From Stegostoma tigrinum (Eukaryota), in contig NC_081387.1 of the NCBI RefSeq assembly GCF_030684315.1, positions 16,337,409-16,401,408 of the forward strand: 64,000 nt of DNA. Reading direction: 5' to 3'. Of the stretch, positions 9,453-46,375 are shown piece by piece; the first letter of the stretch is position 1; every line of letters starts with the position of its first letter. The position numbers and the translations under genes were made by a program. Below the pieces are notes generated by a model. That model searched no databases and was not told the origin of the DNA. It worked only from the letters and a program-made list of their open reading frames with translations.

Positions 9453-9752
9453 CACAGCACGTGAAAGACAGCATCGTGGCTGTTACAGGTTCCTCCGTCC
9501 TACTTCCTGGAACAGATAAAGGATTTGGCAGTCTCCAGTGGGAATTCTCAAAGCCTGGCAAGATCCTTCCCATTTTGAATTACATTGGAACACATCAACA
9601 AACATATGATCAGTATAAGAATAGAGTTGAACTGAACAAATCAGATGGGACATTGTTACTGAAAGATGTGCGTGAGGGAGATACTGGCAGATACAAAATG
9701 ACAGTGGACTTAGACCTGATTAGGACCAGAATTGTCACTCTGATGGTGTTTG
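9453..9752 (+). CDS. Ig V-set exon without cysteines (CD2/SLAM/HEPACAM-type N domain)
   Basis: Acceptor tttgtttcag|c and donor ttg|gtaagt. 300 nt, phase 1-1. Encodes GSSVLLP, LQWEF, YKNRVEL, DGTLLLKDVREGDTGRYKM and IVTLMV. Confidence 0.9.
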
Positions 9753-15598: not shown

Positions 15599-15855
15599 AT
15601 CCTCTCCCCACAACCATCATTTTCAGTAACTGCAGCCTCGAGCACCACACGGTAATGCTGAACTGCGTGGTGCAGAGGGGAAGGGCCCATTCTGTTCAGT
15701 GGACCAGAGCGGGACTGGTACTCCCGGTTGGCTGTCGGAGGACAACAGAACTTTATTCATTTGGAGCGCTCGGAAGTCGGACTCTGGTTATTATACAGGC
15801 GCTGTTGTAAACCCAGTCAGCCAAAACAGCACCACCTACCAACTATCTATTAAGA
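15599..15855 (+). pseudogene. Ig C2-set exon with a frameshift and loss of the F-strand cysteine
   Basis: Acceptor ttcttcag|at and donor aaga|gtaagt. 257 nt, not a multiple of 3. Frame 1 gives DPLPTTIIFSNCSLEHHTVMLNCVVQRGRAHSVQWTRAG. The shifted frame gives WLSEDNRTLFIWSARKSDSGYYTGAVVNPVSQNSTTYQLSIK, with YTG where YxC is expected. Confidence 0.85.
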
Positions 15856-16151
15856 GTAAGTTTGTCAAGCTTACATGAAATTGTGGTGTCTACAACACAT
15901 GAAGTAGCCATTTTTACCTTTACTCCTCATCATTGTATCTTCATGTACAATATCCTAACTCTCAAACATCAGTGTAACTGAGCCACAACTGTGATTGGAG
16001 TCTTTCTGCATGAAGAAAGAGGACACTGCACTTACTTGAAATGGCCACAGAACGTTGCACAAATCTCTATAAATTTGTAACTGATGAAAGGTATTGTTTT
16101 CTGTAAAGATTTAATCAAAAAGACAATCTTTTTCATTTTTTTTCTCGGTAG

Positions 16152-18135: not shown

Positions 18136-19654
18136 TATGTCACAGAGAGGTCACACCCAGCCACACCCCGGTCTGTTCCCAAGTCTACATAATTGCCATG
18201 TTGGGCCAAAAACACCTTGAGAACTAGGACATAAGCTGTACAACTAAGGAATAACAATTCACAGAACGTGCTCTATTATTACTAACTTTTCTTCCACGAA
18301 CGTTGAGTCGTGGCTGAGGATGGGAAACTGAATCTGCAACCTCTCAATCTCCGTCCTAAACTACTGCTCCATCTGAGCGGAAATTTAACATAATTCCCGA
18401 AGTTTAGCTAACAGATGTTTGCCGCATGGCCGTCACAGGAGCGGAGCCGAATGAGGCCGAACTGCCAATTCTCAAGTTGAAGTGGAAGTTTTTGTTTTGG
18501 GTTTACCGTGGAGGTGACCAGATGAGCTCGGTAGTCTCAGGGACGTTTCAGAATTTTGAAAAAAAATCTGCTGCTTTTACGTTACTATGGAAATGTTGAG
18601 ATCTGTCACTTTCGGGGACAACAAAAAAAGCAGTCCCTCCGTTCCCAAGAACTGCTGCATTTGTGAATGTCATTCAATACCATCTCCTCCAGGGCAATTA
18701 GGGAGGGATGTGTAAGAAATGCTGACCCACACCGTGCAGCCCACCTCCTATAGACAGTTTCAAACAATCTGGTCAGGTGGGTTAAGACACACGGCTGGAG
18801 CAGGTCGCCTTGAGCCCAGGGCTACCCTGATCCCGCGGCTCGTAAACACAAAACGCTGTTCGAAAAGACCCCAGCGCTGCGGTTATCCACATCTCGGACA
18901 CGCACTAGTTCAGACTTTACTCCAAGATTTAACCTCAGGGAGGGTTTCCATGAGAGAATGTTCATTGGGGCCGGGGTAGGGTGAGAGGATTCTCCGGGAA
19001 CACGCTAAACTTGAAGGCAAGATTTCCCCTGTAAATCCCATCCAATGCTACTCGCGAGCCAGTGTGTGAGGTGAGGATCGAGGATAAATTGAAGACGAAA
19101 TATAGTCGATTGCATGGTCTAAATTTATTGCAATATCAGTCTGGCAGTGTCTGAGTATCTTCTGAAGTTGTTCGGTCCCAACAACTCTCGAAATAATTGG
19201 AACTGTACGACCTCCCTGGGACACCAGCGTCTCCAGGTGAAGCTTATGTCATCTTGTCCCAGAGTCTCTGTCCCAGGCAGCAGAGCACACAGGCTCCAGG
19301 CAAACGGATCTCTCTGCTATTCCTCAGCCGCTTAGCGGGTGGGGGCGTGTAACAGGAATGTTCACGGTTCAGAGCGGACTGGCATCATTCCTTACCAATT
19401 CCCTCGGGAACACGCCGCTTGCTTCCCAGACGGCAGCGGAGTGCAGCTCCGTCATGTCTCTCCAGAAGCGAAGAGCAGCCAGGTGACGGCAGATTGTAAA
19501 CTCTTATCTGTCTGGTTGTGGACTGTTAAAGTCACATTCCCCTTTAGTAGCTCTGTCCACAGCGCCTGTATGAACTGCCGTCGATACACACCACTGTCAC
19601 TGGCCTGTAAATCCCGCAGACACAACGATCCAGGTTCTGGATCGAGGTGAGCTC

Positions 19655-20260
19655 GATAAGACCAGGAGCCGAAATTAGGCCAGTCGGCCCATCGAGTCTG
19701 CTCCGCCAATCAATTTTGGCTGATAACTTTCTCAATCCCATTCTCCCGCTTTCTCTCTGTATCTCTTGATTCCCTGCAACAATCAAAAACCTGCCCATCT
19801 CTGTCTTAAATATACTCAATGACCTGGCCTCCACAGCTTTCTGTGATAATGAATCCCATAGATTCACCACTCTCAGGCTGAAGACGTTTGTCCTTGTCTC
19901 CGTTTTAGAGGTTCTTGCCTTTCCTCTAAGGCTGTGTCCTTGAGGCCTAGTCTCTCCTGCTAGTGGAAATATCTTCCAATGTATGTTCTGTCCGGGCTGT
20001 TCAGTATTCTAAGACAATAAAATGTAAGGCTGGGTGAACACAGCAGGCCCAGCAGCATCTCAGGAGCACTGCTGGGCCTGCTGTGTTCATCCAGCCTCAC
20101 AGTTTATTGTCTTGGATTCTCCAGCATCTGCAGTTCCCATTGTCACTGTTCAGTATTCTGTAAGTTTCAATTAGATTCTCCCCTCATTCTTTGCATTCTT
20201 CTCATCCAATATAGACCCAGAGTCCTCAAACATTCCTCATATGTTAAGCTTTTCATTCCT
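19655..20260 (-). mobile_element. CR1-like 3' fragment containing a Penelope-derived inverted insertion (20011-20145)
   Basis: Translates as VVNLWDSLSQKAVEARSLSIFKTE. The inner insertion is flanked by a ctgttcagtattct duplication. Confidence 0.8.
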
Positions 20261-21060: not shown

Positions 21061-22214
21061 GGATCCTTAAATTGGAGGAGGGTGTGCGTGTGGAATAGGA
21101 GACAGAGTGATTGACAGACTGGTTAACTGTCCCGTACACTTCTCTCTGAGAGACACTCAGGGAAATAGCATGGCTTCCATAGGGCTGCAATAAGATCAGT
21201 AACAACATCAGTATCGGAAAGGGATTGGGCACTTTAAATATTCCTGATCAAGTTCTCCACACGGGGCGGAGCAGTTGGGGGAATTGTTTGAAATCGCGTA
21301 ACGCTGTGAGCAGCAGTGGGAAGGTTAACATGAACACAACAGCCGGTTAACATCAAATTAGAAAACCGTGCGAAATACAGGGAGGCCGTTCGGCCCCATG
21401 CTGCGAGACGGCGCCATGTGTAGGTGGTCCCCACTAGTCCCGATCTCCCGCTCTGTTTCCTCCTTATGTCATGTTTAATCTTGATTCCCTTCCACTTTGG
21501 AAGTGTCTGCTGGCTTTGCTTCAACAGCGATCCTTTTTAAATTGAATTAGGAACATGGGACACTTTAATAGTTTCATAAATCCTAATTAATCCACCTCCC
21601 CACTCAGCCCCGCCACAAAAACGAAATCTGGGAGAATGGTCAAGGGAAATTCGAGGAAAATAGCATCGGTGCATCTAAGGGGCTAGGTGGGGGTGGGTTT
21701 GGTTGTGACCCCTTATATAAACGATCTTTAGCTAAAGTGAGTGTGTGGCGGGGCCTGAAGTATCGTTTCCGAGGTCATTTCCGAGCCAACCTGTTTTTTT
21801 TTTAAATCCTATTTTCTAGTTACTGTGTTCGGAGATATTATAACACAGCTTGAACCTGAGGTCACCTACTCCAGAGGTGGGGACACCACCACTTAACGGA
21901 GACGGCAAAAGCCCAGGAACAGAAAGAGGAGCTGTATTGTCCGGCACGCGGTTACCCAGAGCCGGAATATGACAGCCAAAGGAACTGGCTCAGATAACAA
22001 TCTCCTTCTGAAATTGGGCAGGATTGAATGTGCATCCGAAGTGAACGGGGCGATGTGGCTAAATTATTTCGCAAACAATTCAACGTTTAGAAATCAATCA
22101 TCTTTAATAAAGGAGTGTGGAAGTCAAGCCAGCCCGAGTGATAAATTTAATCTTCAGCCGACACATTTTGCAGAAAACATGCAAATGGCGATTGTTGAGG
22201 TCTGAGTCAAAGGT

Positions 22215-27429: not shown

Positions 27430-27599
27430 TCACTTCTGTCTACATCTCCGGCTCATATACCCGTACAAACAGGCCGCGAGCACACAGACCCCACCAAATC
27501 GGGCCAGAAGGAGAAGGGGAGCAATTTCCTTGTTGAGCTGTCCTCTGCTAGTCCCCGGCTGTTGGCAGCTTCGGGTCGGCGGAGTTGTCATCTCAATAT
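27430..27599 (-). CDS. Stalk, transmembrane (Arg-containing) and short-tail terminal exon of V-domain gene copy B
   Basis: Acceptor ttcttgttgtag|at at 27600/27599, phase 1 matching the V exon donor. Encodes DIEMTTPPTRSCQQPGTSRGQLNKEIAPLLLLARFGGVCVLAACLYGYMSRRCRQK*. Confidence 0.75.
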
Positions 27600-28146: not shown

Positions 28147-28542
28147 CTGTCACATTACAGACTGTTAAAGTCACATTCTCTTTAACGGCTGTGTCCGCAC
28201 CGTCTGCATAAACTTGTATCACATACACGCCGCTGTCGCTGGGCTGTAAATCCCGCAAACACAACGATCCCGTCTCTGGGTCGACGTCAACTCGGTGTCG
28301 GTGGGAAGGAGCTGACATCTGGTGATCTGAGCAGTTATAACAGCATCTGGCAGCATCTGGAAAGCAGTTTGACCGGATCAGGCTCACAATTGGAGTGTCT
28401 CCGGGCAAAAAATACCACAGGATCCTTAAAGTGGAGGAGGGTGTGAGTGTGGAATAGGAGACGGAGAGACGGACAGACTGGCTCACTGACCCGTTCACTT
28501 CTCTCTGAGAGACACTCAGGGAAATAGCACTGTTTCCAGGGG
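28147..28542 (-). CDS. Ig V-set exon, copy B (HEPACAM/VSTM5/CD2-like N domain lacking the canonical B-F disulfide)
   Basis: Branch-point-like tactgat, acceptor ttgttacag|cc and donor acag|gtaaga. 396 nt, phase 1-1, open. Motifs VNGSVSQSVRLSVSY, ILWYF, RVDV, GSLCLRDLQPSDSGVYVIQV and VTLTV. Confidence 0.9.
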
Positions 28543-29761
28543 CTGTAACAAGATCACACACAACATCAGTATCGGAAAGGAATGGGCAGTTCAAATATTC
28601 CCAACGACGGCGGCAAATTATGAAACGTAAATAAATCATAAAATAAACGGAGCATCAACTGGCACGGAATTATTTTTATTGAGACCGAGAATCCTCGGGG
28701 GATCATCAAAACTTAGTTAGAAAGGCTTACTTCACTGAATGTAAAACAGCTTGAACGAAGGTATTTGACCTGAAACGCTATCTCGGTTTCTCTGTTACAC
28801 AGTGGAGTATTGCTGATTGAAATCAGACCGAGCACAAAGAGGCTGTTGGAGGTCTCTCACATTCAGACCCAACATTTTCTCTCTTCATGTCAGAATTCCA
28901 GCATGTACAGTGTTTTGCTTTTGTTTGCTAAGGACGCGATCGTGCTCAGATATCTTGTTCGAGGAGAGCAGTGAGAAGGAAAGTGGCTTAGCGCGATTGG
29001 AAGCGGACAGTAAACACGGACACAAAAAAACCCCAGAAAATGCTGGAAAATCTCAGCAGGTCTGGCAGCATCTGTGGAAAGAAATCAGAATTAACGCTTC
29101 GGATCCACTGACCCTTCTTCAGAACCCAGTAGTTATCACTGGGTGCTTTTTTTAACTGGAGGAACATGCACTCTCGGATTCCTCTTTCTTTTGTGAAAGT
29201 ATAACGGTGAGCAGAGTGCTGAGATTCTTCAAAATGGCATTCACCGGATGCTAAATCCAGAGACAACTGACGGATGAGTTTGCAGTTTGAATTGATTTGC
29301 CTCAGTCAGAAGAATGAGGAGCCTTACTATAAATTATCGGACGGCCTTGTGCAGGTAGTGGTTCTAGGGATACAGTGGTAGCTTAGCTACCTGCTTGTGT
29401 TGGGTGGATGGGTGGATGGGGAAACTGGTTTGAGTCTCAGTCAAACGAGCGAGCCATTTAACTTCGCAAATGAGGTCAATAAGCTCGGAACATATGCTGA
29501 TACTAAAAAATGTGTTATTTCATCCTACTTGGTGAATAATTAAAGAAGAGTTGAAGTAAAAGATTTTCACCCAGAGGAGCCTGGAACTCTAACACTAATA
29601 AAAAATAAGAACCACAGACGCCGGATATCAGAACCAAAAACAGAAGTTGCTGGAGAAACTCACAAGGTCCAGCAACTTCTGTAGAGAGAGAAAGCAGAAT
29701 TGACGGTTCAGTCTAGTGACCCCTCTTCAGAGCTCTTTAACTCAGTGTCTGGAAAGATGAT

Positions 29762-30427
29762 AATAGACAATAGACAATAGGTGCTGGAGTAGGCTATTCG
29801 GCCCTTCGAGCCAGCACCACCATTCATTATGATCATGGCTGATCATCCACAATCAGGATCCTGTTCCTGCCTTATCCCCATAACCCTTGATTCCACTATC
29901 TTTGAGAGCTCTATCTACCACTTTCTTTAAAGTGTCCAGAGAGTTGGCCTCCACTGCCTTCTGGGGCAGAGCATTCCATATACCCACCACTCTCTGGGTG
30001 AAGAAGTTTTTCCTCAACTCTGTTCTAAATGGCCTACCCCTTATTTTTAAACTGCGTCCTGTGGTTCTGGACTCACCCATCAGCAGAAACATGCTTCCTG
30101 CCTCCAAAGTGTCCAATCCCTTAATAATCTTATATGCCTCAATCAGATCTCCTCTCATCCTTTTAAATTCAAGTGTATACAAGCCCAGTCGCTCCAATCC
30201 TTCAACATATGATAGTCCCGCCATTCTGGGAATTGACCTCGTGAACCTACGCTGCACTCCCTCAATAGCAAGAATGTCCTTCCTCAAATTTGGAGACCAA
30301 AACTGCACACAATACTCCAGGTGCGGTCTCACCAGGGCCCTGTACAGCTGCAGAAGGACCTCTTTGCTCCTATACTCAATTCCTCTTCTTATGAAGGCCA
30401 GCATGCCATTAGCTTTCTTCACTGCCT
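29762..30427 (-). mobile_element. Young CR1 LINE 3' end with an uninterrupted ORF2 tail
   Basis: 193-aa ORF AVKKANGMLAFIRRGIEYRSKEVLLQLYRALVRPHLEYCVQFWSP...FFTQRVVGIWNALP and a (CTATTGT)n tail. Confidence 0.95.
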
Positions 30428-31876
30428 GAGGCATAAAATAATGTAAAATGTTTGAAGTGTTGCAATCTCTGAGGCCCCAGGCAAAACTATATATAGCTCT
30501 TTCTGACCCTCTCAGCCAACGGGCTCAACTGGATTCTTACTCTTAAAATTACTCATACTCTGAGTCTATGATGTGAAAGATGCAAGTCAACACCCAACCA
30601 TAGGATGATGGATTTATCCCAGAAGGGATGAGGGAACATTTTATACCTTAATATTTAAATCCAAATCTCTGAAGACTAGCCTATTCATTAAATCTCCCAG
30701 CTGAATTGGGTTTCAGGCAATCCTTTGTGCCATCTAAAATTCTAAGGCATCAGAACAAGAGTCGGCTGTTTGGCCCCTCAGACTACTCTGTCATTCAATA
30801 GGATCATGGCTCATTTCACATTTCTGCCCTTTCTCAACAACCCTTTGATTCCCCGACTAATCAAGAATCTATCTATCTCAGCCTTAAACATACACAAGGA
30901 CTCTGCCCAAAGGAGTTCCAAAGTCTCACAGCCCTCTGACAGAAGGAATTTCTCCTCATCGCAGTCTTAAATTGGCATCTATTCAGAGACTATGCCCTCT
31001 AGTTCAAAACTCTCCCATGAGGGGAAACATCTTCTCAGAATTTACCCAGTCAAGCCCCTTAAGAAGCCTATATATTTCAGTGAGATCCCACCCCCACCCC
31101 CGCCAGCCTTTGAAACATGGATTGGAGGGATATGTTGTGAGGAGGAAGCAGGACACTGGAGGCCCACTGGATGAGATGGTAAATCTCAATGACTTGTATC
31201 CAGCCATACTAACAGGATGAGAGAGTGGTGAAACTCAGCTCTGAGTGAAAACTGCCAGCCAGTCAGAACAGAGTCAAGGAGCATTTGATGGAGAATTGTT
31301 TTAATGCAAATATCAGTTAAAACACTTGCTGGAGACAGGGATAAAGTAATGGGTGAGAAGCCAGAAGATAGTGACCTAACAGTGATGATTTGTTTGCCGG
31401 CTCATATCTCCAACACCTCAGGAACTGAAGCACAAGCAATGAAATCAAATAAGATGGAGATGTGTTCTGTACTTATAATTGAGTGTGATAGCCTTTGGTG
31501 GTTGACAGTATCAGAAGTGCTAAAGCGATGTGTGTGATAACTTCAGCATTGTATCTAATGGACAATATTTTACTGATGACTGCCATGATTTTCATTTACA
31601 TATTACATACGCTTCGAAAGGACTGAGCAAGGAAAAAACATGTTATGATTAAACGTGTATAATATATATTCTATATATAGGATATGGAGATTAAACTAAT
31701 ACTCACCCCAGGCCCCTTTGTAACAGTACCATCCACTACCCCTCCAGATAGCAACGACAAACCACAGGTGAAGCTGCCAAACTGGACTATTTGACCCTTA
31801 ACTATTTCACAGTTGAAGCAATCCTTTTTTTTTCCCAAATGACCATTACATCTTGTAGTGACACCTAGTAAAGAAC

Positions 31877-32053
31877 CACTGAAGGATTGAAAATTCTCTG
31901 TGGACTTTGTTTCTGTTCTCCAATGGTCACTCAGTAACTTCATCCAACCTCTTATGTACAGACACAATCTGTACATAAGAGGTTGGATGAAGTTACTGAG
32001 TGACCATTGGAGAACAGAAACAAAGTCCACAGAGAATTTTCAATCCTTCAGTG
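31877..32053. repeat. Perfect inverted repeat, 86-bp arms with a 5-nt loop
   Basis: 31877-31962 is the exact reverse complement of 31968-32053. The loop is cacaa. Confidence 0.97.
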
Positions 32054-32069
32054 ATGGTAATCAAGCTCC

Positions 32070-32345
32070 CTCGCACACTCGCTCAGTAACTCTCTCCCCA
32101 GCATCTTGTGGACATATCTGTAAGATGTACATTATATCGGTAATGATTTTAACCACAGTCCCTCGCACACTGACCAGTAACACCCTCCCCAGTCCCTTGT
32201 CTATATAGCTGTAAGTCCATTATATCTATGGTAACATTAATCACACTCACTTAGTAAAGACTTCCCCAGTTCCTTGTGTATATGTCTGTAATGTTTACAT
32301 CACATTTTAATAACATTAATTACATTCACTCAGTAACTTCTTCGC
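32070..32345. repeat. Degenerate tandem repeat, about three units of ~80-90 bp
   Basis: Recurring cac(t)cagtaac..ccccag(t)ccttgt..tat..ctgtaa..cattat..taacattaat. Confidence 0.7.
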
Positions 32346-32529
32346 AAACCGCTTGTCTTGTTGAACACCCTTGTTTTGATCTCAATCCTGCTGCCTCAGA
32401 TTATCAAACAACTGCTCAGAGCAAGAAACATGTGAGAGTGACTGTATCTTAATTTTATTCCATTGTTTTTGATAGCTTAATGCATTTTCTTAGATGGCCA
32501 GATGGTTCAGACATGGCCTGACACATATG

Positions 32530-33300
32530 TGGAGCTCATGGACCTGAGCTCTAGTTACATTGAGGTTGTACAGGACATTGGTGAGGCCTCATCTTGAATA
32601 CAGCGCGCAGTTCTGGTCACCCTGTTATAGGAAGAATATTAGGCTTGAGAGGGTTTAGAAGAGATTTATCAGGATGTTGCCAGGAAGAGGAGGGTTTAAG
32701 TTATGGGGAGAGTCTGGGCAGGCTGGGACTTGTCTCACTGAAGGGGTGACCTTATAGAGATTTATAAAATCCTGCAGGATACAAGTAAGGTGAGTGGTAG
32801 GTGTCTTTTCCTTAGGGTGGGGGATTTCCAGATTTGAGGCTTTTTTTTAAAGTAAGGGTGAAACTTTAAATAAAAAAACATGAAGGGCAATTTTTCTTTT
32901 ACGGTTCCTGTTTGCAATGAGCTTGCAAAGGAAGTGATGGATGCAGATACAGTTAGAATGTTTGAACAACATTCGGATAAGTACAGGAATAGGAAAGGTT
33001 GGGAGGGATATAGGACAAGTGCAAGCAGGTGGGAGTAGTTTAGTGTGGGACGATGGTCGGTATGGACTGGTTGACCGAAGGATCTGCTGTATGACTCTCT
33101 GACTGTATAACTTGGGCCTAGAGGTAAGACCATAAGACCATAAGACATAGGAGTGGAAGTAAGGCCATTCAGCCCATCGAGTCCACTCCGCTATTTAAAT
33201 CATGGTTGATGGACATTTCAACTCCGCTTCCCTGCACTCTCCCCGTAGCCCTTGATTCCTTGTGAGATCAAAAATTTATCGATCTCAGCCTTGATAAGAA
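32530..33300. mobile_element. CR1 3' fragments (+ copy 32530-33105; - copy 33125-33295 with a (TCTTATGG)n tail)
   Basis: gtacaggacattggtgaggcctcatcttgaatacagcgcgcagttctgg, and a taagaccataagaccataagac tail. Confidence 0.8.
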
Positions 33301-33425
33301 CAGGTATGTACAGTTTACCATAGAACCACTGTACTTGTTTACTGACAAGAAATTAATTTGCAGCCAGATGACTGTGGAGCTTCCTTTTAATTAGATGCTG
33401 CCTCCTGAGCTAATTCCAGAGGAAT

Positions 33426-33514
33426 TTACAAACAGATGCTTGATGTTAGGATAATGCACAGGGTGGCACTTGGCTGCAATATATTCCCACTATCGCTCTT
33501 GAGATGAGCTGCTA
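33426..33514 (-). CDS. GPI-anchor-signal-like terminal exon of V-domain gene copy C
   Basis: Acceptor catttccttcag|ta at 33515/33514, phase 1 matching the V exon donor. Encodes VAAHLKSDSGNILQPSATLCIILTSSICL*: small-residue cluster SDSG, spacer, then a hydrophobic C-terminus with no cytoplasmic tail. Confidence 0.6.
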
Positions 33515-34147
33515 CTGAAGGAAATGGTCGCTTTTTAATCAAAGACATTACTGCTTTCACTCACTGGCCAGGCGTGTGGGACAGGAGAGGCAGAGTCACT
33601 TTGACCCTAGACCCACGACAATTCGGGTTTGAGCTTCAGAGCATGGGGTTTACTGGAGGTGCAGAACTAATGACTTTCTGAAGGGGAGTTCTGGCTAGTG
33701 CCCTTCGTTTTCTGATCTTTCAGCCAGAATTCCCCAGGCTAGCAGCTCCAGCAAGATTTGGAGTTTGACCTGAACGTTATTCCAGGCGTAGATTCAACCA
33801 TTCAAACATCCTCTCCGCTCCCCTCATGCCCCTTTACCCGGGATGCCCGTGTTTCTGGGTGAAGCATTTCTTCCTATGTCTCCAGTTCACACGTCAATAC
33901 CAGTAGTCCCCTGGCACTCAGAGCCCGTTAAAGATGTCCTCACAGAACAGGAGAGCGGCTCCCTGCACTCTATCGCTCAGAGCTGGTGGACCAAGAACAG
34001 GAATGTTCCCGCTTCAAAGCGGACTGGCATCTTTCCTTATCAATTCCCTCGGGGAGACAAGGCTTACGTCCCAGCGAGTGGGACATGCAGTCATGCTTCT
34101 CCATCAGCAAACAGCAACCAGCTCTGGGGCAGAATGTAAACTCTTAC

Positions 34148-34568
34148 CTCTCTCATCATAGACTGTTAAAGTCACATTCCCTTTAACGGCTGTGTCCGCA
34201 CCGTCTGCATAAACTTGTATCACATACACGCCGCTGTCGCTGGGCTGTAAATCCCGCAAACACAACGATCCCGTCTCTGGGTCGACGTCAACTCGGTGTC
34301 GGTGGGAAGGAGCTGACACCTGGTGATCTGAGCAGTTATAACGGCATTTGGCAGCATCTGGAGAGCAGTTTGATCGGATCAGGCTCACAATTGGAGTGTC
34401 TCCGGGCAAAAAATACCACAGGATCCTTAAAGTGGAGGAGGGTGTGAGTGTGGAATAGGAGACGGAGAGACGGACAGAATGGCTCACTGTCCCGTTCACT
34501 TCTCTCTGAGGGACACTCAGGGAAATAGCACGGCTTCCATAGGGCTGTAACAAGATCACACACAACAT
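34148..34568 (-). CDS. Ig V-set exon, copy C (near-identical to copy B)
   Basis: Open from ATG 34568 (MLCVILLQPYGSRA-ISLSVPQREVNGTV...) to donor agag|gtaaga at 34148/34147. The 5' boundary is uncertain: either this ATG or the cag acceptor at 34545. Confidence 0.85.
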
Positions 34569-35489
34569 CAGTATCGGAAAGGAACGAACAGTTTATAGTA
34601 ACAGATTTCTATGCGGGAAGTAGATTATTAAACATCTCACTCGTTTAAAAATCAGAAAACTCACACCGCATCATCAAAGAATACTTTTTTGTGCTGGGAC
34701 CGAGAGTGTGCGGTTTATCATTAATTGGAGACTAAAAAAACCCTGCAAATGTTGGAACCTAAGGTAGACAAACATGCCTGAAGAAGGGTAACGCCTGAAA
34801 CGTTCAGTAAACGACTTTCCTCTCGATGCTGCCTGGCCTGCTGTGTTCGCCCAGCCTCCTGTTTGTCTACCTTGGATTCCAGCATCTGCAGGGTTTTTTT
34901 TTGTGTCTTTAATCATTAATTAGAGACACACCGGAGATGAGGAAATACCAACAATTCAATGGATGCCAGGGGATCTGAAACCAAAACAGAAAATACTGGA
35001 GAAACACAGCAGGTCTGGCAGCGTATGTGAAGTGAGAGAAACGGAGTTAACATTTTGTGTCCACTGACCCTTCCTTAGGGAGATGAGAAACTTTGTCATT
35101 ACAGAGCATTACAAGAGAATGTAGAAGTCTCAACTTAGCACAGATAGGAATAAAACAAGTGAGGAAAATACAAGAGATGATAATTGTAAAGAGGCCATTT
35201 ATTTCTGCAACGGTATCTCGAAACGGCATGAAATGGACAACATGCAGAAGCGAACGAGAGCGCGGTGTAACTGATTATGTGTGCGTGTGTGATTCTGTAT
35301 AAAAGTCTGTGGTTATGGAAACTGTAAAACAGCAGAAATACGCCGATGGCAGAAAAAGGCAACATTTCACCCGTACATGCAATGACCGATATTCTATAGC
35401 TGGGCTCCATGATTTGCATCCAAACAATGTGCCTGGATTAAAAAAGATTGAGAGAAGTGAAAAGAAAACGATTGGACGGGGGGGTTACA

Positions 35490-36365
35490 TAATTAAAAAT
35501 ACGGAATTGAGCAGTGCTGTAGGACAGAGAGGTCTAGGGGTTCAGGTACAAAATTCTTTGAAATTTGCATCACATGTAGATGGAGTGGTTAAGAAGACAC
35601 TGAACACATTTGAGGTAACAAGGTGTAGAGCTGGATGAACACAGCAGGCCAAGCAGCATCAGTGGAGCAGCAAAGCTGACGTTTTGGTTTTAGACATTTA
35701 TGAAGAAGGGTCGACGCCGGACATGTCAGCTTTCCTGCTCCTCTGATGCTGCTTGGCCTGCTGTGTTCATCGAGGTCCACACCTTGTTATCTCAGATTCT
35801 GCAGCATCTGCAGTTCCCAAATGCTTGGCACATTTTCATTCATTAGTCGGCTGAACCTTTGAGTTTAGGAGCCGGGATGTCATCGTGGGGTTGTAAAGGA
35901 CATTGGTAAGGCCCCTTTTGGAGGACTGCGTCCAGTTCTGGTTACCCTTATGACAATGATATATTATTAAACTGGAAAGGGATCAGAAAAGACTTACCAG
36001 GGTGTTGCCTGGAATGGAGGGTTTGAGACATCGAAATAAATTGGAAAGAAAGGTGAATAACAAGGTTCTTTTCACTAAAGTGGAGGAGTTCAAAGCTAGG
36101 GGGTATCTTTTGAAAGTGAGAGGCTAAAGGCTTAAACAAGGACATGGGGACAATTTTTTTACACAGAGTGGTTAATGTGCGGAATGAACTGTCCGACAAA
36201 GCGGTGGATGCAGGTACAGTTACAACGTTTAAAAGACGTTTGGAGAAGTACATGAAAAAGAAAGATTCATGGGCCAAACGCTGGCAAGTAGGACTAGTTT
36301 AGTTTGGCAACTAGTTTAGTTGGACCGAAGGGTCAGTTTCCATTCTGTCTGACCCTGTGACTCGA
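35490..36365 (+). mobile_element. CR1 3' fragment with a nested Penelope-derived inverted insertion (~35612-35820)
   Basis: GQRGLGVQVQNSLKFASHVDGVVKK and FTQ.VVNV.NEL. The inner element has inverted gctggatgaacacagcaggccaagcagcatc arms. Confidence 0.8.
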
Positions 36366-36699
36366 TGATACCATCACAGTTATAGATGTGAAAATTAATG
36401 TAAAATCATCGCCCTCACCTGCAAAAAAAAAACAAACAGGTTCATGATGCACTGTTAGGGTGTGAACAAATACCTCGAGCGAATCTTTCATGTATTATTT
36501 GTGACTATTGATTTTATGTCGATCTCAGCATTGTCATAGTGTAGGTTAGATGGGCTTCAGATCGGTATGACAGGTCGGCACAACATTGAGGGCCAAAGGG
36601 CCTGTACTGTGCTGTAATATTCTATGTTCTATGTCATGGTGTTGTCAGTGGCTCTGCCTGCAACATTATTCATACAATGGTGATAAAATATGTTATCTG

Positions 36700-36968
36700 T
36701 TACAGATTTGACTTTTTCTTAATTTCACAAGGAGTTTCCAGGTCATCCATACCGTCCCCATTGTCACTGATAGCAGCACCCTCAAAAAAACCATTTGATT
36801 TGTCACACCCAGCTGAGGAGTTTGTCCTTTTACAGTCAGTGTGAAGTTGTGTTTTCCAAGTGAGGCCATTGGGCGGCTTTGGATTTCTGAAGAGCGTGGG
36901 GTCTGACATCTGGCCTTCTCCACTTCTCACAGTCATCCATTCTCCTTTCTGTTTGCTTTTATTTAAAA
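36700..36968 (-). CDS. Candidate terminal coding exon of an unidentified minus-strand gene
   Basis: Strong acceptor ctttccctttgcttttcag|tt, then a phase-1 frame open for 89 codons to TAA (LNKSKQKGEWMTVRSGEGQMSDPTLF...KKKSNL*). Non-repeat, hydrophilic, no recognisable domain. Confidence 0.35.
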
Positions 36969-37076
36969 CTGAAAAGCAAAGGGAAAGCCAGTTTGCTCAG
37001 GTCAGGTAGGAAGGAAATGAGGGTCAAACATTTGAACCAACATGAAACTAGACTTCAAATTAGACTTCAAAATTTT

Positions 37077-37104
37077 CTGATGAAGGGTCTAGGCCCGAAA
37101 CGTC
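37077..37104 (+). ncRNA. Minimal type-I hammerhead ribozyme motif in a Penelope terminal repeat
   Basis: CTGATGA-a-GGGtctaggCCC-GAAA-CGTC: conserved hammerhead core boxes flanking a GC stem II. Confidence 0.65.
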
Positions 37105-37370
37105 AGCCTTCCTGCTCCTAAGATGCTGCTTGGCCTGCTGTGTTCATTCAGCTCCACACCTTGTTACCAAGGACCCCTGCTCACTTTTCCAATCCCTGTC
37201 CTTATGGAGAAAGTGGAATTTGTAATCAGTATTTTCCCAAATTCTGGGCACTCACAGACAGTCTAGTCTCAGTATTGAACAATATATTTCCTGTGGCTTC
37301 TATCTTTCTTTCCCCTTTCCTAAATTGGTCTGTTCAAAGATGTTACTGTGTACTTCCTGATTTGGTGGGA

Positions 37371-37373
<3 letters not shown>

Positions 37374-37441
<68 letters not shown>
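37374..37441. repeat. (CA)n microsatellite
   Basis: About 34 uninterrupted CA units. Confidence 0.97.
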
Positions 37442-37442
<1 letters not shown>

Positions 37443-37604
37443 TCTCTCCCCCCTTCACATACACATACACGCACATTCCCCCTCCTCCCCCCACCATACA
37501 CACTCTCTCTACTGCGCCCCCCCCCCAAATACACGCATGTAAATCTATAGGTGAATTTGATTTTTCAGATATATTCTACATTTTTCACAAAACACACAAT
37601 TTAT

Positions 37605-37927
37605 AGATAATAAAATGTGAGGCTGGATGAACACAGCAGGCCAAGCAGCATCTCAGGAGCACAAAAGCTGACATTTCGGGCCTAGACCCTTCATCAGAAA
37701 ATTTTGAAGTCTAATTTGAAGTCTAGTTTCATGTTGGTTCAAATGTTTGACCCTCGTTTCCTTCTGAAACTAGACTTCAAATTAGACTTCAAAATTTTCT
37801 GATGAAGGGTCTAGGCCCGAAACGTCAGCTTTTGTGCTCCTGAGATGCTGCTTGGCCTGCTGTGTTCATCCAGCCTCACATTTTATTATCTTGGAATCTC
37901 CAGCATCTGCAGTTCCCATTATCTCTG
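37605..37927. mobile_element. Penelope-derived foldback insertion (127-bp inverted arms) with a target-site duplication
   Basis: Arms 37605-37731 and 37765-37891. acacaatttatagata occurs at 37594-37609 and 37928-37943. Confidence 0.85.
37799..37826 (+). ncRNA. Minimal hammerhead ribozyme motif (antisense twin at 37670-37697)
   Basis: CTGATGAAGGGTCTAGGCCCGAAACGTC. Confidence 0.65.
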
Positions 37928-38409
37928 ACACAATTTATAGATAGTCAGTCTCATAAATTCCTACTTTAGAAATAAAACCAGTCTGACTCCAAATCAAAAC
38001 TCACAACAGATTCTGAACAAGGCCTCACACCTAACATGCATAGTCTGACCTAAAATGTCACCTGGGATAATGGGAACTGCAGATGCTGGAGAATCCGAGA
38101 TAACAAAGTGTGGAGCTGGATGAACGCAGCAGGCCCAGCAGCATCTCAGGAGCACAATGTCACCTCTTCTTTACACTGATAAAACCTTTAGTTCTCACAG
38201 CACAGGGACTTGGAAGGAATTCTGGGATTTACATGTACATAATAATCAATTAAAGCTTTCTAAGTGATGAATGAGTTAACAGCATCTTAGGTTTGTTTAG
38301 TACATCCTCGTTAATGGTGTGACTTTTTGATCTCTTACTTACAAATTCTATGTCTTATGCTACCTCTCTCACTAATAGCTGAAGAGTGGGTAAGGATCCA
38401 AAAGCTTCT

Positions 38410-39385
38410 GAGATAATAGGAACTGCAGATGCTGGAGAATCCGAGATAACACGGATGAACACAACAGCCAAGCAGCATCTTGGGAGCAGGAAACCATTTT
38501 GGGCCCAGACTCTTCATCAGAAATGGGGGAGGGGAAGAGGGTTCTGAAATAGATAGGGAGAAAGGGGGAGGTGGATAGAAGATGGATAGAGGAGAAGATA
38601 GGTAGAGAGGAGACAGACAAGTTAAAGAGGTGGGAATGGAGCCAGTAAAGGTGAGTGTAGGCGGGGAGTTTGGGAGAAGATAGGTCAGTCCAGGGAGGAT
38701 TGACAGGTCAAGGGGGCGGGATGAGGTTAGTGGGTAGGAAATAGGGGTGCAGCTTGAGGTGGGAGGAGGGGATAGGTGAGGGGAAGAACAGATTAGGGAG
38801 GCTGGGATGAGCTGGGCTGGTTTTGGGATGTGGTGGGGGGAGGAGAGATTTTGAAGCTTGTGAAGTCCACATTGATACCATATGGCTGCAGGGTTCCCAA
38901 GCGGAATATGAGTTGCTGTTCCTGCAACCTTCGGGTGGCATCATTGTGACACTGCAGGAGGCCCAGGATGGACATGTCATCTGAGGAATGGGAGGGGGAG
39001 TTGAAATGGTTTGCGACAGGGAGGTGCAGTTGTTCATTGCAAACCAAGCATAGGTGTTCTACAAAGCAGTCCCCAAGCCTCCGCTTGGTTTCCCGATGTA
39101 TAGGAGGCCACAATAGGTACAGCGGATGCAGTATACCACATTAGCACATGTGCAAGTGAACCTCTGCTTAATGTGGAAAGTCTTCTTGGGGCCTGGGATG
39201 GGGGTGAGGGAGGAGGTGCGGGGGCAAGTGTAGCATTTCCTGCGGTTGCAGGGGAAGGTGCCGGGTGTGGTGGGGTTGGAGAAGAGTGTGGAGCGAACAA
39301 GGGAGTCACGGAGAGACTGGTCCCTCCAGAAAGCAGACAAGGGTGGGGTGGGAAAGATGTCTTTGGTGGTGGGGTAGGATTGCAG
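38410..39385 (-). mobile_element. Penelope-like retroelement 3' half (GIY-YIG domain plus terminal repeat)
   Basis: PGTFPCNRRKCYTC, FHIKQRFTCTCANVVYCIRCTYCGLLYIG.TKRRLGDCFVEHL and RLQEQQLIFRLGTLQPYGIN. Confidence 0.92.
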
Positions 39386-39465
39386 TTAGTTTTCGAATAA
39401 ATTTGCTGGGCTTTCACCTGGGGCTGTGTGATTTCTGGCTTACAACGCTAACTTGGTCAAGGATC

Positions 39466-39485
39466 TCCTCCACTAGATGGCGAGC
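39466..39485 (+). promoter_or_regulatory. CTCF-binding consensus site
   Basis: cctCCACTAGATGGCGagc matches the CTCF core CCASYAGRKGGCR and lies in non-repeat sequence. Confidence 0.55.
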
Positions 39486-39734
39486 GAGATCATTTATTGC
39501 GGGTCCTTTGCTTTCAGAGATTTAAAGTGATCGCCAGCAATTTGAAGAGATGAAGTACGGATTGCCTCAATGGGATGGTAGACATTTACTTCTTGTGTTT
39601 AAATGGATTTGGTAGAAAATGCACAAGAAAAACTGGGTTTAACTATGGAACAATGCTTTTAGACAAACAAATGAACAGGCAGGGAATGGCGGGATACAGA
39701 CCATGTGCAGGCAGACGATCGAACCCCTCTACTG

Positions 39735-40018
39735 TGGAAACAGGACTTTCTGCCCAATAAATCCACACTGAACCTCAGAGCATCCCACCCAGACCCATCC
39801 CCCTTTAATCCACCTAATCTACACATCCCTGAATACGACAGCAACGTAGCACAGCCAACCTGCCTCACCTGCACATCGTTTGGACTGTGGGAGGAAACCC
39901 ACGCAGGCACAGGGAGAATGTGCAAACTCCCCAGACAGTCACCCGAGGCTGGAATTGAACCTGGGTCCCTGGTGCTGTGAGGCAGCAGTGCTGACCACTG
40001 AGCCCCCGTGCCGCCCTG
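39735..40018 (-). mobile_element. tRNA-derived SINE (well preserved)
   Basis: Reverse strand ggcggcacgggggctcagtggtcagcactgctgcctcacagcaccagggacccaggttcaattccagc, with A and B boxes. Confidence 0.85.
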
Positions 40019-40038
40019 TGATCAGTTTAGAATGGCAG

Positions 40039-41243
40039 TGATAATGGAAACTGCAGATGCTGGAGAATCCAAGATAACAAAGTGTGAAGCTGGATGAACA
40101 CAGCAGGCCAAGCAGCATCTCAGGAGCACAAAAGCTGACGTTTCTGGCCTAGGCCCTTCATCAGAGAGGGGGATGGGGAGAGGGAACTGGAATAAATAGG
40201 GAGAGAGGGGGAGGCAGACCGAATATGGAGAGAAAAGAAGATAGGTGGAGAGAGTATAGGTGAGGAGGTAGGGAGGAGATAGGTCAGTCCAGGGAAGACG
40301 GACATGTCAAGGAGGCGGGATGAGGTGGTAGGTAGGAAGTGGAGGTGCGGCTTGAGGTGGGAGGAAGGGATGGGTGAGAGGAAGAACAGGTTCAGGAAGC
40401 GGAGACAGGTTGGGATGGTTTTGGGATGTAGTGGGGGAAGGGGAGATTTTGAAGCTTGTGAAGTCCACATTGATACCATTGGGCTGCAGGGTTCCCAAGC
40501 GGAATATGAGTTGCTGTTCCTGCAACCTTTGCGTGCCATCCTTGTGGCACTGCAGGAGGCCCACGATGGACATGTCGTCTGAGGAATTGGAGGGGGAGTT
40601 AAAATGGTTTGCAACTGGGAGGTGCAGTTGTTTGTTGCGAACTGAGCGGAGGTGTTCTGCAAAGCGGTCCTCAAGCCTCCGCTTGGTTTCCCCAACCTGA
40701 AGGTTGCAGGAACAGCAACTCATATTCCGCTTGGGAACCCTGCAGCCCAATGGTATCAATGTGGACTTCACAAACGTCAAAATCTCCCCTTCCCCCACCG
40801 CATCCCAAAACCAGCCCAGTTCGTCCCCTCCCCCCTACTGCATCCCAAAACCAGCCCAGTTCTTCCCCTCCCCCCACTGCATCCCAAAACCAGTCCAACC
40901 TGTCTCTGCCGCCCTAACCTGTTCTTCCTCTCACCCATCCCTTCCTCCCACCTCAAGACGCACCTCCATTTCCTACCTACCACCTCATCCCGCCTCCTTG
41001 ACCTGTCCGTGTTCCCTGGACTGACCTATCCCCTCGCTGCCTCCTCACCTATACTCTCCTCTCTACCTATCTTCTTTTCTCTCCATCTTCGGTCCGGCTC
41101 CCCCTCTCTCCCTATTTATTCCAGTTCCCTCTCCCCAGCCCCCTCTCTGATGAAGGGTCTAGGCCCGAAACATCAGCTTTTGTGCTCCTGAGATGCTGCT
41201 TGGCCTGCTGTGTTCATCCAGCTCCACACTTTGTTATCTTAGC
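40039..41243. mobile_element. Penelope-like insertion with a large inverted duplication of its 3' end
   Basis: GIY-YIG tail on - (40307-40695) and on + (40700-41240). ttagaatggcag is duplicated at 40027-40038 and 41244-41255. Hammerhead cores at 40137-40164 (-) and 41147-41174 (+). Confidence 0.9.
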
Positions 41244-41709
41244 TTAGAATGGCAGCATGATTGCACAGACATGGTGGGCCAAAGGGCCTGTTCCTGTGCC
41301 ACACTGCTCTAATCAGGCAGCCTTTCTGTATTTTTAAGTGAAATGTGGGAATTCCTTGTGTTGATCAGTGAGTGGAGGAAAGGTTACTGAATCTCGGTGT
41401 TGTTCAAAGTGGGCATAATTTCCCAAGTTAATTCAGTGAGAGGATGGAAGCATTTTCTCCTCACCCGGCAGCTCTGAAGTACATTGGGGCCATCATGGTG
41501 TGATGTGTACGTTGAACTGTTGGAGAGTAGGGAGCCTGTAACCACAGGTTGTTGAATCATCCTGTCTGGTCTGTGAATAATGGAGTCACATTGACAGAGA
41601 CAAAGAACAGCTCACTCAGGACTGGAAACCGTTGCAAACTCCTTCGTTGCTCTGGTTATAATTAGCACACACTATCTTGTCTTAATTTGCCTTTGACCAC
41701 AAGTGCATC

Positions 41710-42490
41710 AGGAAGTAGTCAGCGTGTAACATCCTTGAGACTCTGCAGGAAGAGGAGAGGGTGTATCCTGTCTGGTTGTTCCCTGAGCAGATGACCAAAG
41801 TGAATTGGCACCGGCCATCATCAGCAGCACTTTCGAACGAGCACCAAGACATGGCTTGGCTGGCGGTGAGAACAGCACTACCTGTGAGATCCTTCGCTTA
41901 CAACCAGTCGGTCTGCTCCATCATGCACTGCCCTTGAAGCAGGGATTGGGTGTTGAGATTGTCACAACTCTCTGTCTGGAATGTGCCTTTGCAAAGGAAG
42001 TCTGGAGGAAGATTCAGTGGTTTTTGGCGAGGTTCGACCTGAACAGCTCCGTAATCCGTGTCTGTTCCCTGAGACAGACAACGACTGCGCCTGGAGGACC
42101 ATCAGCTCGGTGAAAGTCCCTCTTTGGTCTGCCTGCAACTTGTTGGTCTTCCAGAGCAAGGAGCTGACCCTGACCGAGTGTTGCAGACTGGCACATTCCA
42201 AGGTCCAGGACTAGGTGCTGAGGGACGCACTACAGCTTGGGGCAGCTGCTGCCAAGGGGCAGTGGGGAAAGACCACCATCTGAGGCCTTTCTGCCAAAAT
42301 ACAACGGGGTCCATTCAGTTACCTCCCGGTGCCTGAAATGTATGTGAATGATATCTTTCACAAATAAGAGGTGCCTTCGGGTTGTCAAAACTTTCAGGAA
42401 AGTCAAAATCCAATGTTTGTTTGTTTCTACATATGCAAAGACAGTACAGAACCAAACTGTGAATAAAGTATATTTCTGAAATTATAAAAA
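41710..42490 (+). mobile_element. L1/Tx1-clade LINE 3' fragment (zinc-binding C-terminal region)
   Basis: LCLECAFAKEVWRKIQWFLARF and CAWRTISSVK.PLWSACNLLVFQSKELTLTECCRLAHSKVQDY, followed by aataaa and an A-rich end. Confidence 0.7.
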
Positions 42491-43859
42491 ACCATGAAAC
42501 AATACTGATTATCATATTTGACAATCTATATTAGGCTTCAGTCACATGGGACCCTCGTGGCACAATGGTAGTGCCCCTACGTCGAAGTCAAGTGGGCAGG
42601 CTCAAATCCCAGCTGTGCCAGAGGTGTACAATGAATAGGTTGATTAAAAGGTATGCACTCGTGGGCCTCTGTGCAGCAAGGGTCATGCTCCAATTTTTTT
42701 TTAACAAAGTTGAGCACACTTTTAAAGTGAAAGGCAGGAGATTTGAGGAAAGGCTTTTTCTCCCAGATGGTAGTGGAGGGCAGGAATGCAGTGCCTGAGA
42801 TGGTAGTTGAGTTTTGTAACCTCACAACCTTTGAAAGATGTGTGGATGAGCACTTGAAGTATCATAGCACTGAAAGCTATGGGCCTAGTGAGGCACAGTG
42901 GGACTAGCATAGGCTGCAGTATAGTTTTGGTGATACAGACATGACAAGCAAAGGACCTGTTCTGTACTACTTTACAATTCAATGAACTGTCAAAAATCAT
43001 AGGTTGTTACTTTGAAAGTTCCTTCTTTAAAAATAACTAACCAATACAGATTTTTAATTGGTCTATGCGCGTCGTTACTGACTTGTTTAATCTCTTAACT
43101 GCTCAAATCTTTTTATAGAAAGTACATTATTGCCTGTTTGAACACAGGGAGCTCTCATTGCATTGTGTCACATGTCCCAAAGTCAACTGATTCATGCCCA
43201 GCTTGACACCGAGTCAGGAGAAGTTTTCAGGCATTCGGAATGGCTACCTCAATTGGAGGCTTTGGGCCCTGCAGAAATCAAGTAGAGGCCTAATACATGT
43301 TTTTGGGTCTTCTGGGGACACCGAGGTTCAAAGCCTACTTCTACCAACGGTGCTGTCCCACTGAAAGGTCGGTCTTTCCCCTTTGTGGTATTCTCCACCC
43401 CCCGAGGAGTGGGGAGGGAATGCCTCTGAGACCCCTCTCTCAGGGGCCTCAGTTGTCTCACTCCTTTGCCTCTGATGTGGTCTATCAGCAGACCGTATTT
43501 AAATTCCCTTCATTCGATCTTCCTGTTTCTTCTTAAATTTGTTCAATGAGTGTGAGCATTTTTTTCCAGCAATTAATTTCCATCCCTTCTTGCCCTGGAG
43601 AAGGTGATGGGGAGCTGCCTTATTGAACTGCTGTGGTTGTTGTATAGAGACACCCACAATGCTTTAAGAAGAACATTGGCCAATTAATGCGAAAGAACAG
43701 TGATATGGTTCCAAGTCGGGATGGTGTGTGTTTTGAGAGGCATTTGCTGGTGGTAGTGTTCATTGTACGGATCCTCGGTGACCATGTACCCCTGGTTCTT
43801 TACCTGGAGAAACCTCAGACACTAAGTCCTAGTTTCAACATAGATCCTTTTACACAAAA

Positions 43860-44995
43860 ACATAGGAAAATAGAACATAGAACAATGCAGCACAGTACAG
43901 GCCCTTTGGCCCACGATGTTGTGCCAACCTATTATCCTGCTGAGATCAATCTACCCTGCATACCCTACATTTTACTCTCCTCCATGTGCTTGTCCAAGAG
44001 TCGCTTAAAAGTCTCTAAAGTATCTGACTCCACTACCACTGCCAGCAGCCCATTCCACATGCCCACCACTCTCTGTGTGAAGCACCTACCTCTGACATCT
44101 CCCACATACCTCCCTCCAATCACCTTAAAATTATGTCCCCTCGTAATACTCATTTCCCCCCGGGGAAAAAGTCTCTGACTATCCACTCTATCTATGCCTC
44201 ATCATCTTGTACACCTCTATCAAGTCACCTCTCCATCCTTTTTCCCTCCAATGAAAAAAGGTCCTAGCTCCCTCAAACTTTCCTCATAAGACCTGCCGTC
44301 CAGTTTAGGCAGCATCCTGGTAAATCTCCTATACACCCTCTCTAAAGCTTCCATATCCTTCCTATAATGAGGTGATCAGAACTGAACACATTATTCCACG
44401 TGTGGTCTAACCAGGGTTTTATAGGCATAGGAGTCTGCCATTCGACTCTTTCAGCTACTCCACCAGTCAATACGGTTATGGCTGATCATCAAAATCAACA
44501 GCCTGCTTCTAATTTTCCCCAATGCTCTTTGATCTCTCTACTGCTATATTCAACTCAGTTATGAAATCACTGAATGTTTTGCTCTCAACTGCTTCCTGTG
44601 ATAGCAAATTCCACTGGCTTGTCACTCTCTGAGCGAGTAAATCTCTGCTCATCTCACACCTAAGTGACCTACCTCATATCCTTAAACAGTGGTCACTGTC
44701 TCGGAGTTCCTTCACCACTGGGAACATTCTCCCTGCGTGCATTCCCTGTCTGGCCCTCTTAGAAGTTTGTAGGTTTCTACGCGACACCTCACATTCTTGT
44801 GATTTCCACCATATACATTCTGAAACGATTAAACCTCCCCTCTCTTATCAGTCCTGCCATCCCAAGAATCAGTCCGGTAAATGTTCGCTGAACTCCCTCC
44901 ATAGCCAGGACGTCCTTCTTCAGATGAAGAGAGCAAAACTACACAGTGCTTTCACCATACTCTGTACATTTGCAGCAAGACATCCCTGCTCTTGC
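43860..44995 (-). mobile_element. Two tandem CR1 3' fragments
   Basis: DSQRLFPRGEMSITRGHNFKVIGGRY..FTQRVVGMWNGL and a (TTCTATG)n tail. Confidence 0.85.
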
Positions 44996-45519
44996 TCCAT
45001 GATGATTGAAGTAGCGATGGGGCTTCCAAATGCAACGGCTAACATTTCATCCAGTGAAAACTTTGGGACTGTATACTACATCGACCCATAACTCACATTG
45101 AATGTCAGCAGTTAATGTAAAATACCCTAGTGTCAGTGGCTCAGGCTCTTGGCCTAGCAAAGTAATACACTATGGCAAGCCCCACGTCTCCACTCCCCCA
45201 GCATTGGTAATTTGAAATAACAAGGTGTAGAGCTAGATGAACGCAGCAGGCCAAGCAGCATCAGAGGTGCAGGAAAGCTGACGTTTCGGGCCTAGAAAAT
45301 TTTGAATTCTAATTTGAAGTCTAGTTCCATGCACTTTTGTTGCTGATCAAATGGGTATGTGAGAAAAGGATAATTGAACACCTGAAATTTTGTGAGCCCT
45401 TCCATGGGATTGTAAAAGGGGTGGAATTGCACTGGAAGATCTGATTTCTTGTGAGCTGTTGGTGAGTTGACGTGTCTGAAAGTGAAACTGCTTTCCCCGT
45501 TCAACTGGTCAATGTGCTG

Positions 45520-46375
45520 AGGTCAGATTGGGATATTTTCTAAGATTGCAAAGGGATTTTATCAAATCGGTCAATGGACCAAAAAATTGCAGGAGTTCAA
45601 TCTGGATAAATGCAAGGTAGTGCATTTTGGTACACCTGGGCAGGACTTATACAATTAATGGTAGGATCTTGGGTAGTATTGCAAAGCAGAGAAACCCAGG
45701 GGTGCAGGTACATAATTCTTTGAAGTTTGCATCACATATAGACAGGTGGTTAATAAGGCATTTGACACACTTGCCTTCATTGCTCAGTCCTATGAGTACA
45801 GGAGCTGAGGTTGTACAGGACATTGGTGAGGCCTCTTCTGGAGTATTATATCCAGTTCTGGTTGCCCATTAATGGGAAGGATTTATTAAGCTATAGAAGG
45901 TTCAGAAAAGATTTACCAGCATGTTGCCGGGTAAGGAAGGTTTCAGTTATAAGTAAATGCTGGATAGGCTGGGGCCTTTTTCACTGAAGGATGGGAGTTG
46001 AGATGTGACCCTACAGAGGTTTATAAAATCGTGAGGGGCATAGATAGCATTAATGGTAGGCGTCTTTTCCCTAGGATGGAGAATTTCAAGACCAGAGGGC
46101 ATATTTTTAAGATGACAGGAGAGATATTCAAAAAGGGATTCATGAAGGGCAAATATTTTACACAGAGGGTGGTTAGTGTGTGGAATGAACTTCCTGAGGA
46201 ATTGATAGATGTGGGCATAGCTACATTTAAAGACTCTTAGAAAAATACATGAATGGGAAAGGTTCAGAGGGATATGGGCTAGCACAGGCAGGTTGGGACT
46301 AGCTTAGTTTGCAATAATGGTCAGCGTGGACTGTTTGCACTGAAGGGCCTGTTTCCATGCTGTATGACTCTATGA
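45520..46375 (+). mobile_element. CR1 3' fragment
   Basis: EVYKIVRGIDSINGRRLFPRMENFKTRGHIFK..FTQRVVSVWNELP. Confidence 0.88.

Follow-up and report, generated by a model that had tools for sequence, protein, structure and literature searches.

A V domain with a predicted cysteine-clamped C'-C'' hairpin in a candidate family of shark paired receptors

Described V-domain receptors and the zebra-shark locus

Paired receptors of the CD300, TREM/NKp44, PILR, NITR and XMIV families consist of one V domain, a stalk and a transmembrane (TM) segment, with either an ITIM in the tail or a charged residue in the TM; most keep the disulfide between the B and F strands, and CD300, TREM and NKp44 have an extra disulfide in the C-C' region. 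In CEACAM1/CEACAM3-type receptors of Xenopus and mammals the N-terminal V domain lacks the B-F disulfide, ITIM-bearing and activating partners are inverted relative to each other and their V exons are converted, as laid out for the inverted Xenopus ceacam pairs in the available part of PMC5112662, which also places the CEACAM locus beside LIPE. A V-converted pattern in opposing receptors is described in the accessible sections of PMC3210942. The VNARs of sharks, according to the portion of PMC8151367 available, retain the canonical cysteine pair and delete CDR2.

The stretch analysed here (the window) comprises 64,000 nucleotides of zebra-shark (Stegostoma tigrinum) DNA on contig C44, at 16.34-16.40 Mb, and holds on its minus strand a V-domain exon (28147..28542, copy B) with two related copies, A and C. 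The domain shares with the single-V paired families the layout of one V, stalk and TM, and is set apart from them, as they are generally known, by a predicted disulfide in C'-C'' rather than in C-C'. CEACAM N domains were among the PDB sequence matches to the domain, and the locus resembles the CEACAM system in the missing B-F pair, the inverted partners and the probable V-exon conversion; it differs in the putative cysteine-clamped C'-C'' hairpin, in its MHC chromosome and in a TM arginine instead of an ITAM of its own, the copy B tail being short and devoid of a tyrosine motif, unlike the ITAM-like tail of the activating CEACAM member. V domains lacking the pair are likewise shared with CD2/SLAM and HEPACAM/VSTM5 (for the latter, presumably, in the N-terminal strand pattern), and the tyrosine motifs resemble ITSMs in part, whereas the shark family has a single V (or tandem V) with no C2, unlike CD2/SLAM, and its C'-C'' region is ~20 residues longer than that of the plain V domain next to it. 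The preliminary description had loosely likened the stapled loop to the extra cysteines of VNARs, also shark V domains with non-canonical cysteines. The changes run in opposite directions: the hairpin domain is one unsplit exon with Val26 and Ile107 at the sites where VNARs retain their cysteines, and its C'-C'' region is lengthened, not deleted; we therefore rule out a VNAR link. We regard the domain as a real feature among paired Ig-like receptors.

On contig C44 the MHC class I genes lie at 1.1-11.1 Mb and a class II alpha gene at 5.1 Mb, which puts the receptor cluster ~5 Mb past the last class I match, and further family members lie at 16.82 and 19.50 Mb. The SLAM region, marked by NCSTN and PEX19 (both on C59), and the CEACAM locus (LIPE family on C53) were ruled out as the site of the cluster, as was an X-type synteny with MED12 and TMLHE, whose markers are on other contigs (MED12 and TauD matches fall on C17, C18 and C20, not C44). 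CD2-like V-C2 genes form a cluster (G000:C44:16.73-16.94 Mb, L046-L065) with a hairpin member in its midst, P0129, which is of Arg type and more distant. The available part of a paper on the MHC of cartilaginous fish (PMC10751288) mentions only VJ-C1-type genes; the presence of such a family on the MHC chromosome of a shark is relevant to the idea of a primordial immune complex. Kittiwake members (P0169/P0171) are annotated as TMLHE gene models (TMLHE isoform) and a frog member (P0055) is fused with a common-gamma-chain (IL2RG-like) piece, merges which hint at a cluster in a region homologous to the mammalian X and at other surroundings of the family in tetrapods. With P0055 and P0171 as queries, the cluster itself was the only match.

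The copy B V exon and its predicted C'-C'' hairpin

The copy B exon (28542-28147, minus strand, phase 1) is open in frame and bounded by a proper AG acceptor and GT donor, it matches Pfam V-set (E 1.4e-10), and both this profile and the V fold of the predicted model fit membership of the Ig V-set. The canonical cysteine positions are occupied by Val26 (VRLSVSY) and Ile107 (DSGVYVIQV), a cysteine stands at either position in 0/46 rows of a hand-picked alignment (A3), and an F-strand cysteine is found in 0/76 full-span family domains among the 150 matches listed in a profile search. The existence of an unusual V domain with neither canonical cysteine, proposed from the letters in the preliminary description, is thus confirmed, and its assignment to the CD2/CEACAM/HEPACAM type is supported. 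An uncharacterized zebra-shark protein shares 98% identity with the domain, and relatives at 53-64% identity occur in bamboo sharks, catsharks and horn, white, basking and smooth-hound sharks.

Six cysteines are present in the domain and only two of them, C58-x10-C69, are conserved. Cys58 (28364..28366, minus strand) and Cys69 (28331..28333, minus strand), the latter within an N68-C-S sequon, are invariant in the shark alignment (15/15 rows); Cys65 and Cys66 (28340..28345, minus strand; copy C has no Cys66), the E-strand Cys93 (28259..28261, minus strand; Trp or Leu elsewhere in sharks) and Cys127 in VCNVT (28157..28159, minus strand; copy B and its ITIM-bearing paralog only) are restricted to the zebra shark in these 15 rows. 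Each of these four occurs in 1/46 rows of A3, and the E-strand cysteine in one of the 76 family domains among the 150 matches listed, this one being the zebra-shark protein. An AlphaFold model (pLDDT 85) predicts an extended C'-C'' beta-hairpin at residues 49-75 (28313..28393, minus strand; pLDDT 81-92 over these blocks), with C' at 49-60, the turn at 61-66 and C'' at 67-75, so that C58 comes to lie opposite C69, and from this we infer a C58-C69 disulfide clamping the long hairpin. A second pair, C53/C73, falls in the same hairpin register, all 8 of the 8 rows with C73 also having C53 (Fisher p 2.5e-5, in the hand-picked 46 rows of A3, which are related to one another), a co-occurrence which would lend independent support to the register.

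The non-canonical stapled C'-C'' loop proposed earlier therefore stands in part: the insertion is kept in orthologues with its two cysteines, but the motif is C-x10-C, and both C-x6-C-x3-C and the E-strand cysteine are ruled out as family features by the A3 and 76-domain counts; GSLCLRDL is present in copy A (19667-19506). The data do not point to the hairpin as the ligand-binding knob that had been proposed; the tip shows average variability across 13 shark rows (0.80 bits vs 1.67 in the FG loop) and a glycosylation sequon at N68 in 12/13, which appears to count against any special role of this kind. The cysteines suggested for covalent dimers are unconserved, C127 occurring in the zebra shark only and the stalk cysteine in 2/3 carpet-shark Arg-type copies, whilst a homodimer prediction (score 0.03) speaks neither for nor against a dimer.

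Among solved structures the best match to the model is the V1 domain of amphioxus VCBP3 (VIA Z 15.6-15.9, rmsd 2.6-2.8, 123-125/130 residues aligned, with 94-114 in the other rows of the best 50), which is also rank 1 in Foldseek at 20% identity; by its entry title VCBP3 is a secreted chitin-binding protein, unlike the predicted membrane receptor. ESM Atlas gave generic V-set clusters and PDB sequence searches generic Ig matches only, with no herpesvirus chain among the matches listed; herpesvirus chains are also absent from the best 50 VIA rows, which excludes nothing.

A likely receptor pair and its broken copies

In copy B the V exon is joined directly to a stalk and TM exon (27430..27599, minus strand) containing the stalk motif RSCQQ, a TM arginine codon (27501-27499) and a tail ~5 residues shorter than those of bamboo sharks. 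With this arginine and a short tail free of tyrosine motifs, copy B is of the Arg type and would be activating. The leader exon (31330..31405, minus strand) is interrupted by an in-frame TAG (31378-31376) and followed by a GC donor in place of GT, so that copy B is probably a pseudogene; DNA contigs from one sample match the leader, and this sample may be the assembly's own. Copy C is an orphan V exon (34148..34544, minus strand) with 95.6% identity to copy B (17 differences in 394) and an insert that reads SNCSPDAAKCRYNCSDH. Copy A is a V exon broken into a 5' fragment (21062..21184, minus strand) and a 3' fragment (19506..19667, minus strand), and its hairpin part was not found, ~1.4 kb lying between the two. 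Both A and C have one extra base after the acceptor, which in C puts the exon out of frame for a phase-1 leader, and neither has a recognisable paralog of the copy B leader or TM exon. The preliminary description was accurate in the motifs it quoted from copy B (SNCFPDAARCCYNCSDH, GSLCLRDL, VCNVT and the stalk RSCQQ) and had missed the leader lesions and the paired-receptor context.

That context is provided by an intact ITIM gene 80 kb away on the opposite strand (exons at window coordinates 101835-121006, plus strand), which combines a neutral TM with the tail motifs LTYSLL and TVYAF. The database model of this gene splices into a repeat-like 3' piece (120860-121006 and 150496-150597), and reading on through the genomic exon yields the second tyrosine motif as in other sharks; in sharks this motif (TIYAF/TVYAF) is ITSM-like only, with TIYxxI in birds and turtles. 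Identity between copy B and the ITIM gene is limited to 433 bp at 98.8%, with nothing alignable outside; the V exons differ by four bases, three of which change residues 38, 59 and 60, and stalk/TM identity is 25%. Activating and inhibitory members within each of four sharks share 98, 93, 98 and 90% identity in the V domain and 25, 24, 21 and 43% in the stalk/TM. V trees group by species in all four (support 98/94, 92/83, 99/98 and 97/93), whilst in TM trees the three carpet sharks cluster according to receptor type (activating, Arg clade 81/88) and the catshark Arg-type TM stays outside the activating clade, unplaced. V-only identity with divergent stalk and TM in four sharks is as expected from gene conversion, and adds these four species to the likely examples of converted V exons in opposing receptors. 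Among the 54 family members that have a TM, automated screening assigned 23 a tyrosine motif alone, 15 a TM arginine and 16 neither feature. Two traits of paired receptors are therefore present: near-identical ectodomains with opposing TM and tail types, and homogenisation confined to the V exon.

We consider it likely that the copy B domain is part of the likely activating, likely broken partner in a single-domain receptor pair, in which C58-x10-C69 would clamp the hairpin and the ITIM partner lies 80 kb away, inverted. The inhibitory receptor would bind its ligand through the GFCC'C'' face, widened by the hairpin, whose disulfide would replace the lost core bond as stabiliser, and would use LTYSLL and TVYAF to recruit SHP phosphatases; the Arg-type partner would pair with an ITAM adaptor, most likely FcR-gamma, following the pairing rule for a TM arginine. 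Gene conversion would keep the activating V domain matched to the inhibitory one, so that agents exploiting the inhibitory receptor, in all likelihood microbial adhesins or mimics of a self ligand that changes fast, would also trigger activation; both receptors would stay directed at one fast-changing ligand, most likely of microbial origin or imitated by microbes. In the zebra shark the activating copy would have decayed, yet retained a recently converted V exon.

An intact, expressed copy B using an unrecognised leader exon is unlikely. Its V and TM exons are in open frame with canonical splice sites, and a scan of 28600-46000 gave one other leader candidate, a weak ATG-hydrophobic-GT at 42910; the orthologous leader has the stop codon and GC donor, the tail is short against bamboo sharks, the adjoining copies A and C are also broken, and conversion from a live gene accounts for the intact V exon. 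It is rather less probable still that the family consists of homophilic adhesion or co-receptor molecules of the HEPACAM/SLAM kind, near-identity reflecting a recent exon duplication and not ligand-driven pairing. The V domain does belong to the Cys-less CD2/HEPACAM type (98.8% in a profile-profile comparison with the neighbouring plain V domain), bird tails with TIYxxI motifs resemble SLAM ITSMs, and CD2-like V-C2 genes flank the cluster. What weighs against adhesion molecules is that V-only homogenisation is seen in four shark species with divergent TM exons, identity ending at the exon edges, and a single recent duplication is disfavoured because introns and TM would have been copied too.

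We regard it as highly improbable that the extra zebra-shark cysteines form further disulfides, in a knob or in covalent dimers, as a new binding surface of this lineage. The new cysteines do come in pairs (C65 with C93 in copies B and C and the ITIM gene; C66 with C127 in B and the ITIM gene), and 2/3 amino-acid differences between B and the ITIM gene fall at the hairpin tip (residues 59 and 60). Each of the four, however, is confined to 1/46 rows of A3, and by V-domain topology the tip and C127 would sit at opposite ends and C93 would point toward the other sheet. The cysteines that first drew attention to the domain are thus mostly a detail of one lineage, within a probable pseudogene.

Family range, likeness to herpesvirus glycoproteins and the rest of the window

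The profile search covered 1.84 billion representatives and listed 150 matches, 76 with a full-span family domain; the other 74, mostly multi-Ig proteins matching the D-F region only, plus three partial members, were left out of the family count. The 76 domains divide into 48 with C-x10-C, 10 with a pair spaced 7-13 and 18 with no pair, and these 18, among the matches listed, count against the clamped-hairpin reading. Thirty matches were named: they come from tinamou, ostrich, razorbill, pintail, gull and woodpecker, from turtles, alligator and gecko, from newts, frogs, a caecilian, lungfish, coelacanth, gar, chimaera, rays and sharks, and from two platypus genes. All 30 are annotated as 'uncharacterized', 'hypothetical' or '-like', 'HEPACAM family member 2' is among the database names of family matches, and members from ducks, ostrich, turtles and platypus currently carry mistaken CEACAM- or HEPACAM-like labels. 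In duck, frog and other members (P0017, P0026, P0030, P0031 and P0018) the hairpin V domain is repeated in tandem, with two to six copies. Therian and teleost members number 0/30 among the named matches (names were looked up for these 30 of the 76), which suggests a possible loss in both groups, and a platypus member used as query matched nothing but itself, which is weak evidence on therian loss. The family is defined by its sequence profile only.

No description of the family was found in the open literature; most subscription immunology journals and supplements were outside the search, so that an earlier family name may exist. The available text of a 2026 preprint on reptile and bird CEACAMs (PMC13278318) has no mention of cysteines, disulfides or sharks, and the accessible part of PMC4079198 contains no description of a hairpin V domain. 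A family of paired on/off receptors running from sharks to birds and platypus is likely undescribed; it would join the short list of paired immune receptors spanning jawed vertebrates, with a V-domain type of its own.

The best viral fold matches (BFVD) to the model are alphaherpesvirus gI, gE, gD and gG, which make up 34 of the top 50 with TM-scores up to 0.76, whilst they account for 0 of 50 with a control, the plain Cys-less V domain encoded elsewhere in the window. According to the accessible part of PMC1450327, the C, C' and C'' strands are extended in the V-like domain of HSV-1 gE, where a Cys314-Cys323 bond replaces the canonical one and the C'-C'' loop contacts Fc; an extended C'-C'' with a local, predicted disulfide is a trait of the shark model as of the herpesvirus domain. 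Sequence identity to the four glycoproteins is 11-20%, and gE has a third sheet which the model lacks. Weak Pfam herpesvirus matches, seen in several of the shark members, begin at the hairpin's first cysteine and extend nearly ungapped to the F strand (E-values 0.0009-0.1; 5, 4 and 2 of 46 members match gE, gI and gD at E<=0.1); control multi-Ig proteins also match (gI 11/46, gE_N 32/46), so the herpesvirus profiles are not specific. The likeness, as far as the model goes, is a structural analogy. The available portion of a herpesvirus survey (PMC11599850) regards the Ig domains of the viruses as having been acquired independently and assigns US8 to MPZL1. We find it very doubtful that this is an ancestral jawed-vertebrate paired-receptor family, MHC-linked in sharks and missing from placental mammals, whose V domain was the source of the captured gD/gG/gI/gE domain; the family is a concrete candidate for a cellular relative of that domain.

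A Pfam scan for flanking genes over 140/1128 candidate ORFs returned V-set, PRY-SPRY and RT only. In the window, positions 1047-1604 (plus strand) hold a PRY-SPRY (B30.2) exon whose gene is TRIM- or butyrophilin-like. A plain Cys-less V exon (9452-9751, plus strand) and a C2-like exon (15630-15875, plus strand), the latter seemingly with no F-strand cysteine, make up a CD2/HEPACAM-like neighbour that is possibly decayed. From 54670 to 64000 and beyond there is a 30-bp tandem array, probably a minisatellite, with 311 copies in the window, and this region holds a 2005-codon open frame (54660-60674, plus strand) together with shifted frames.
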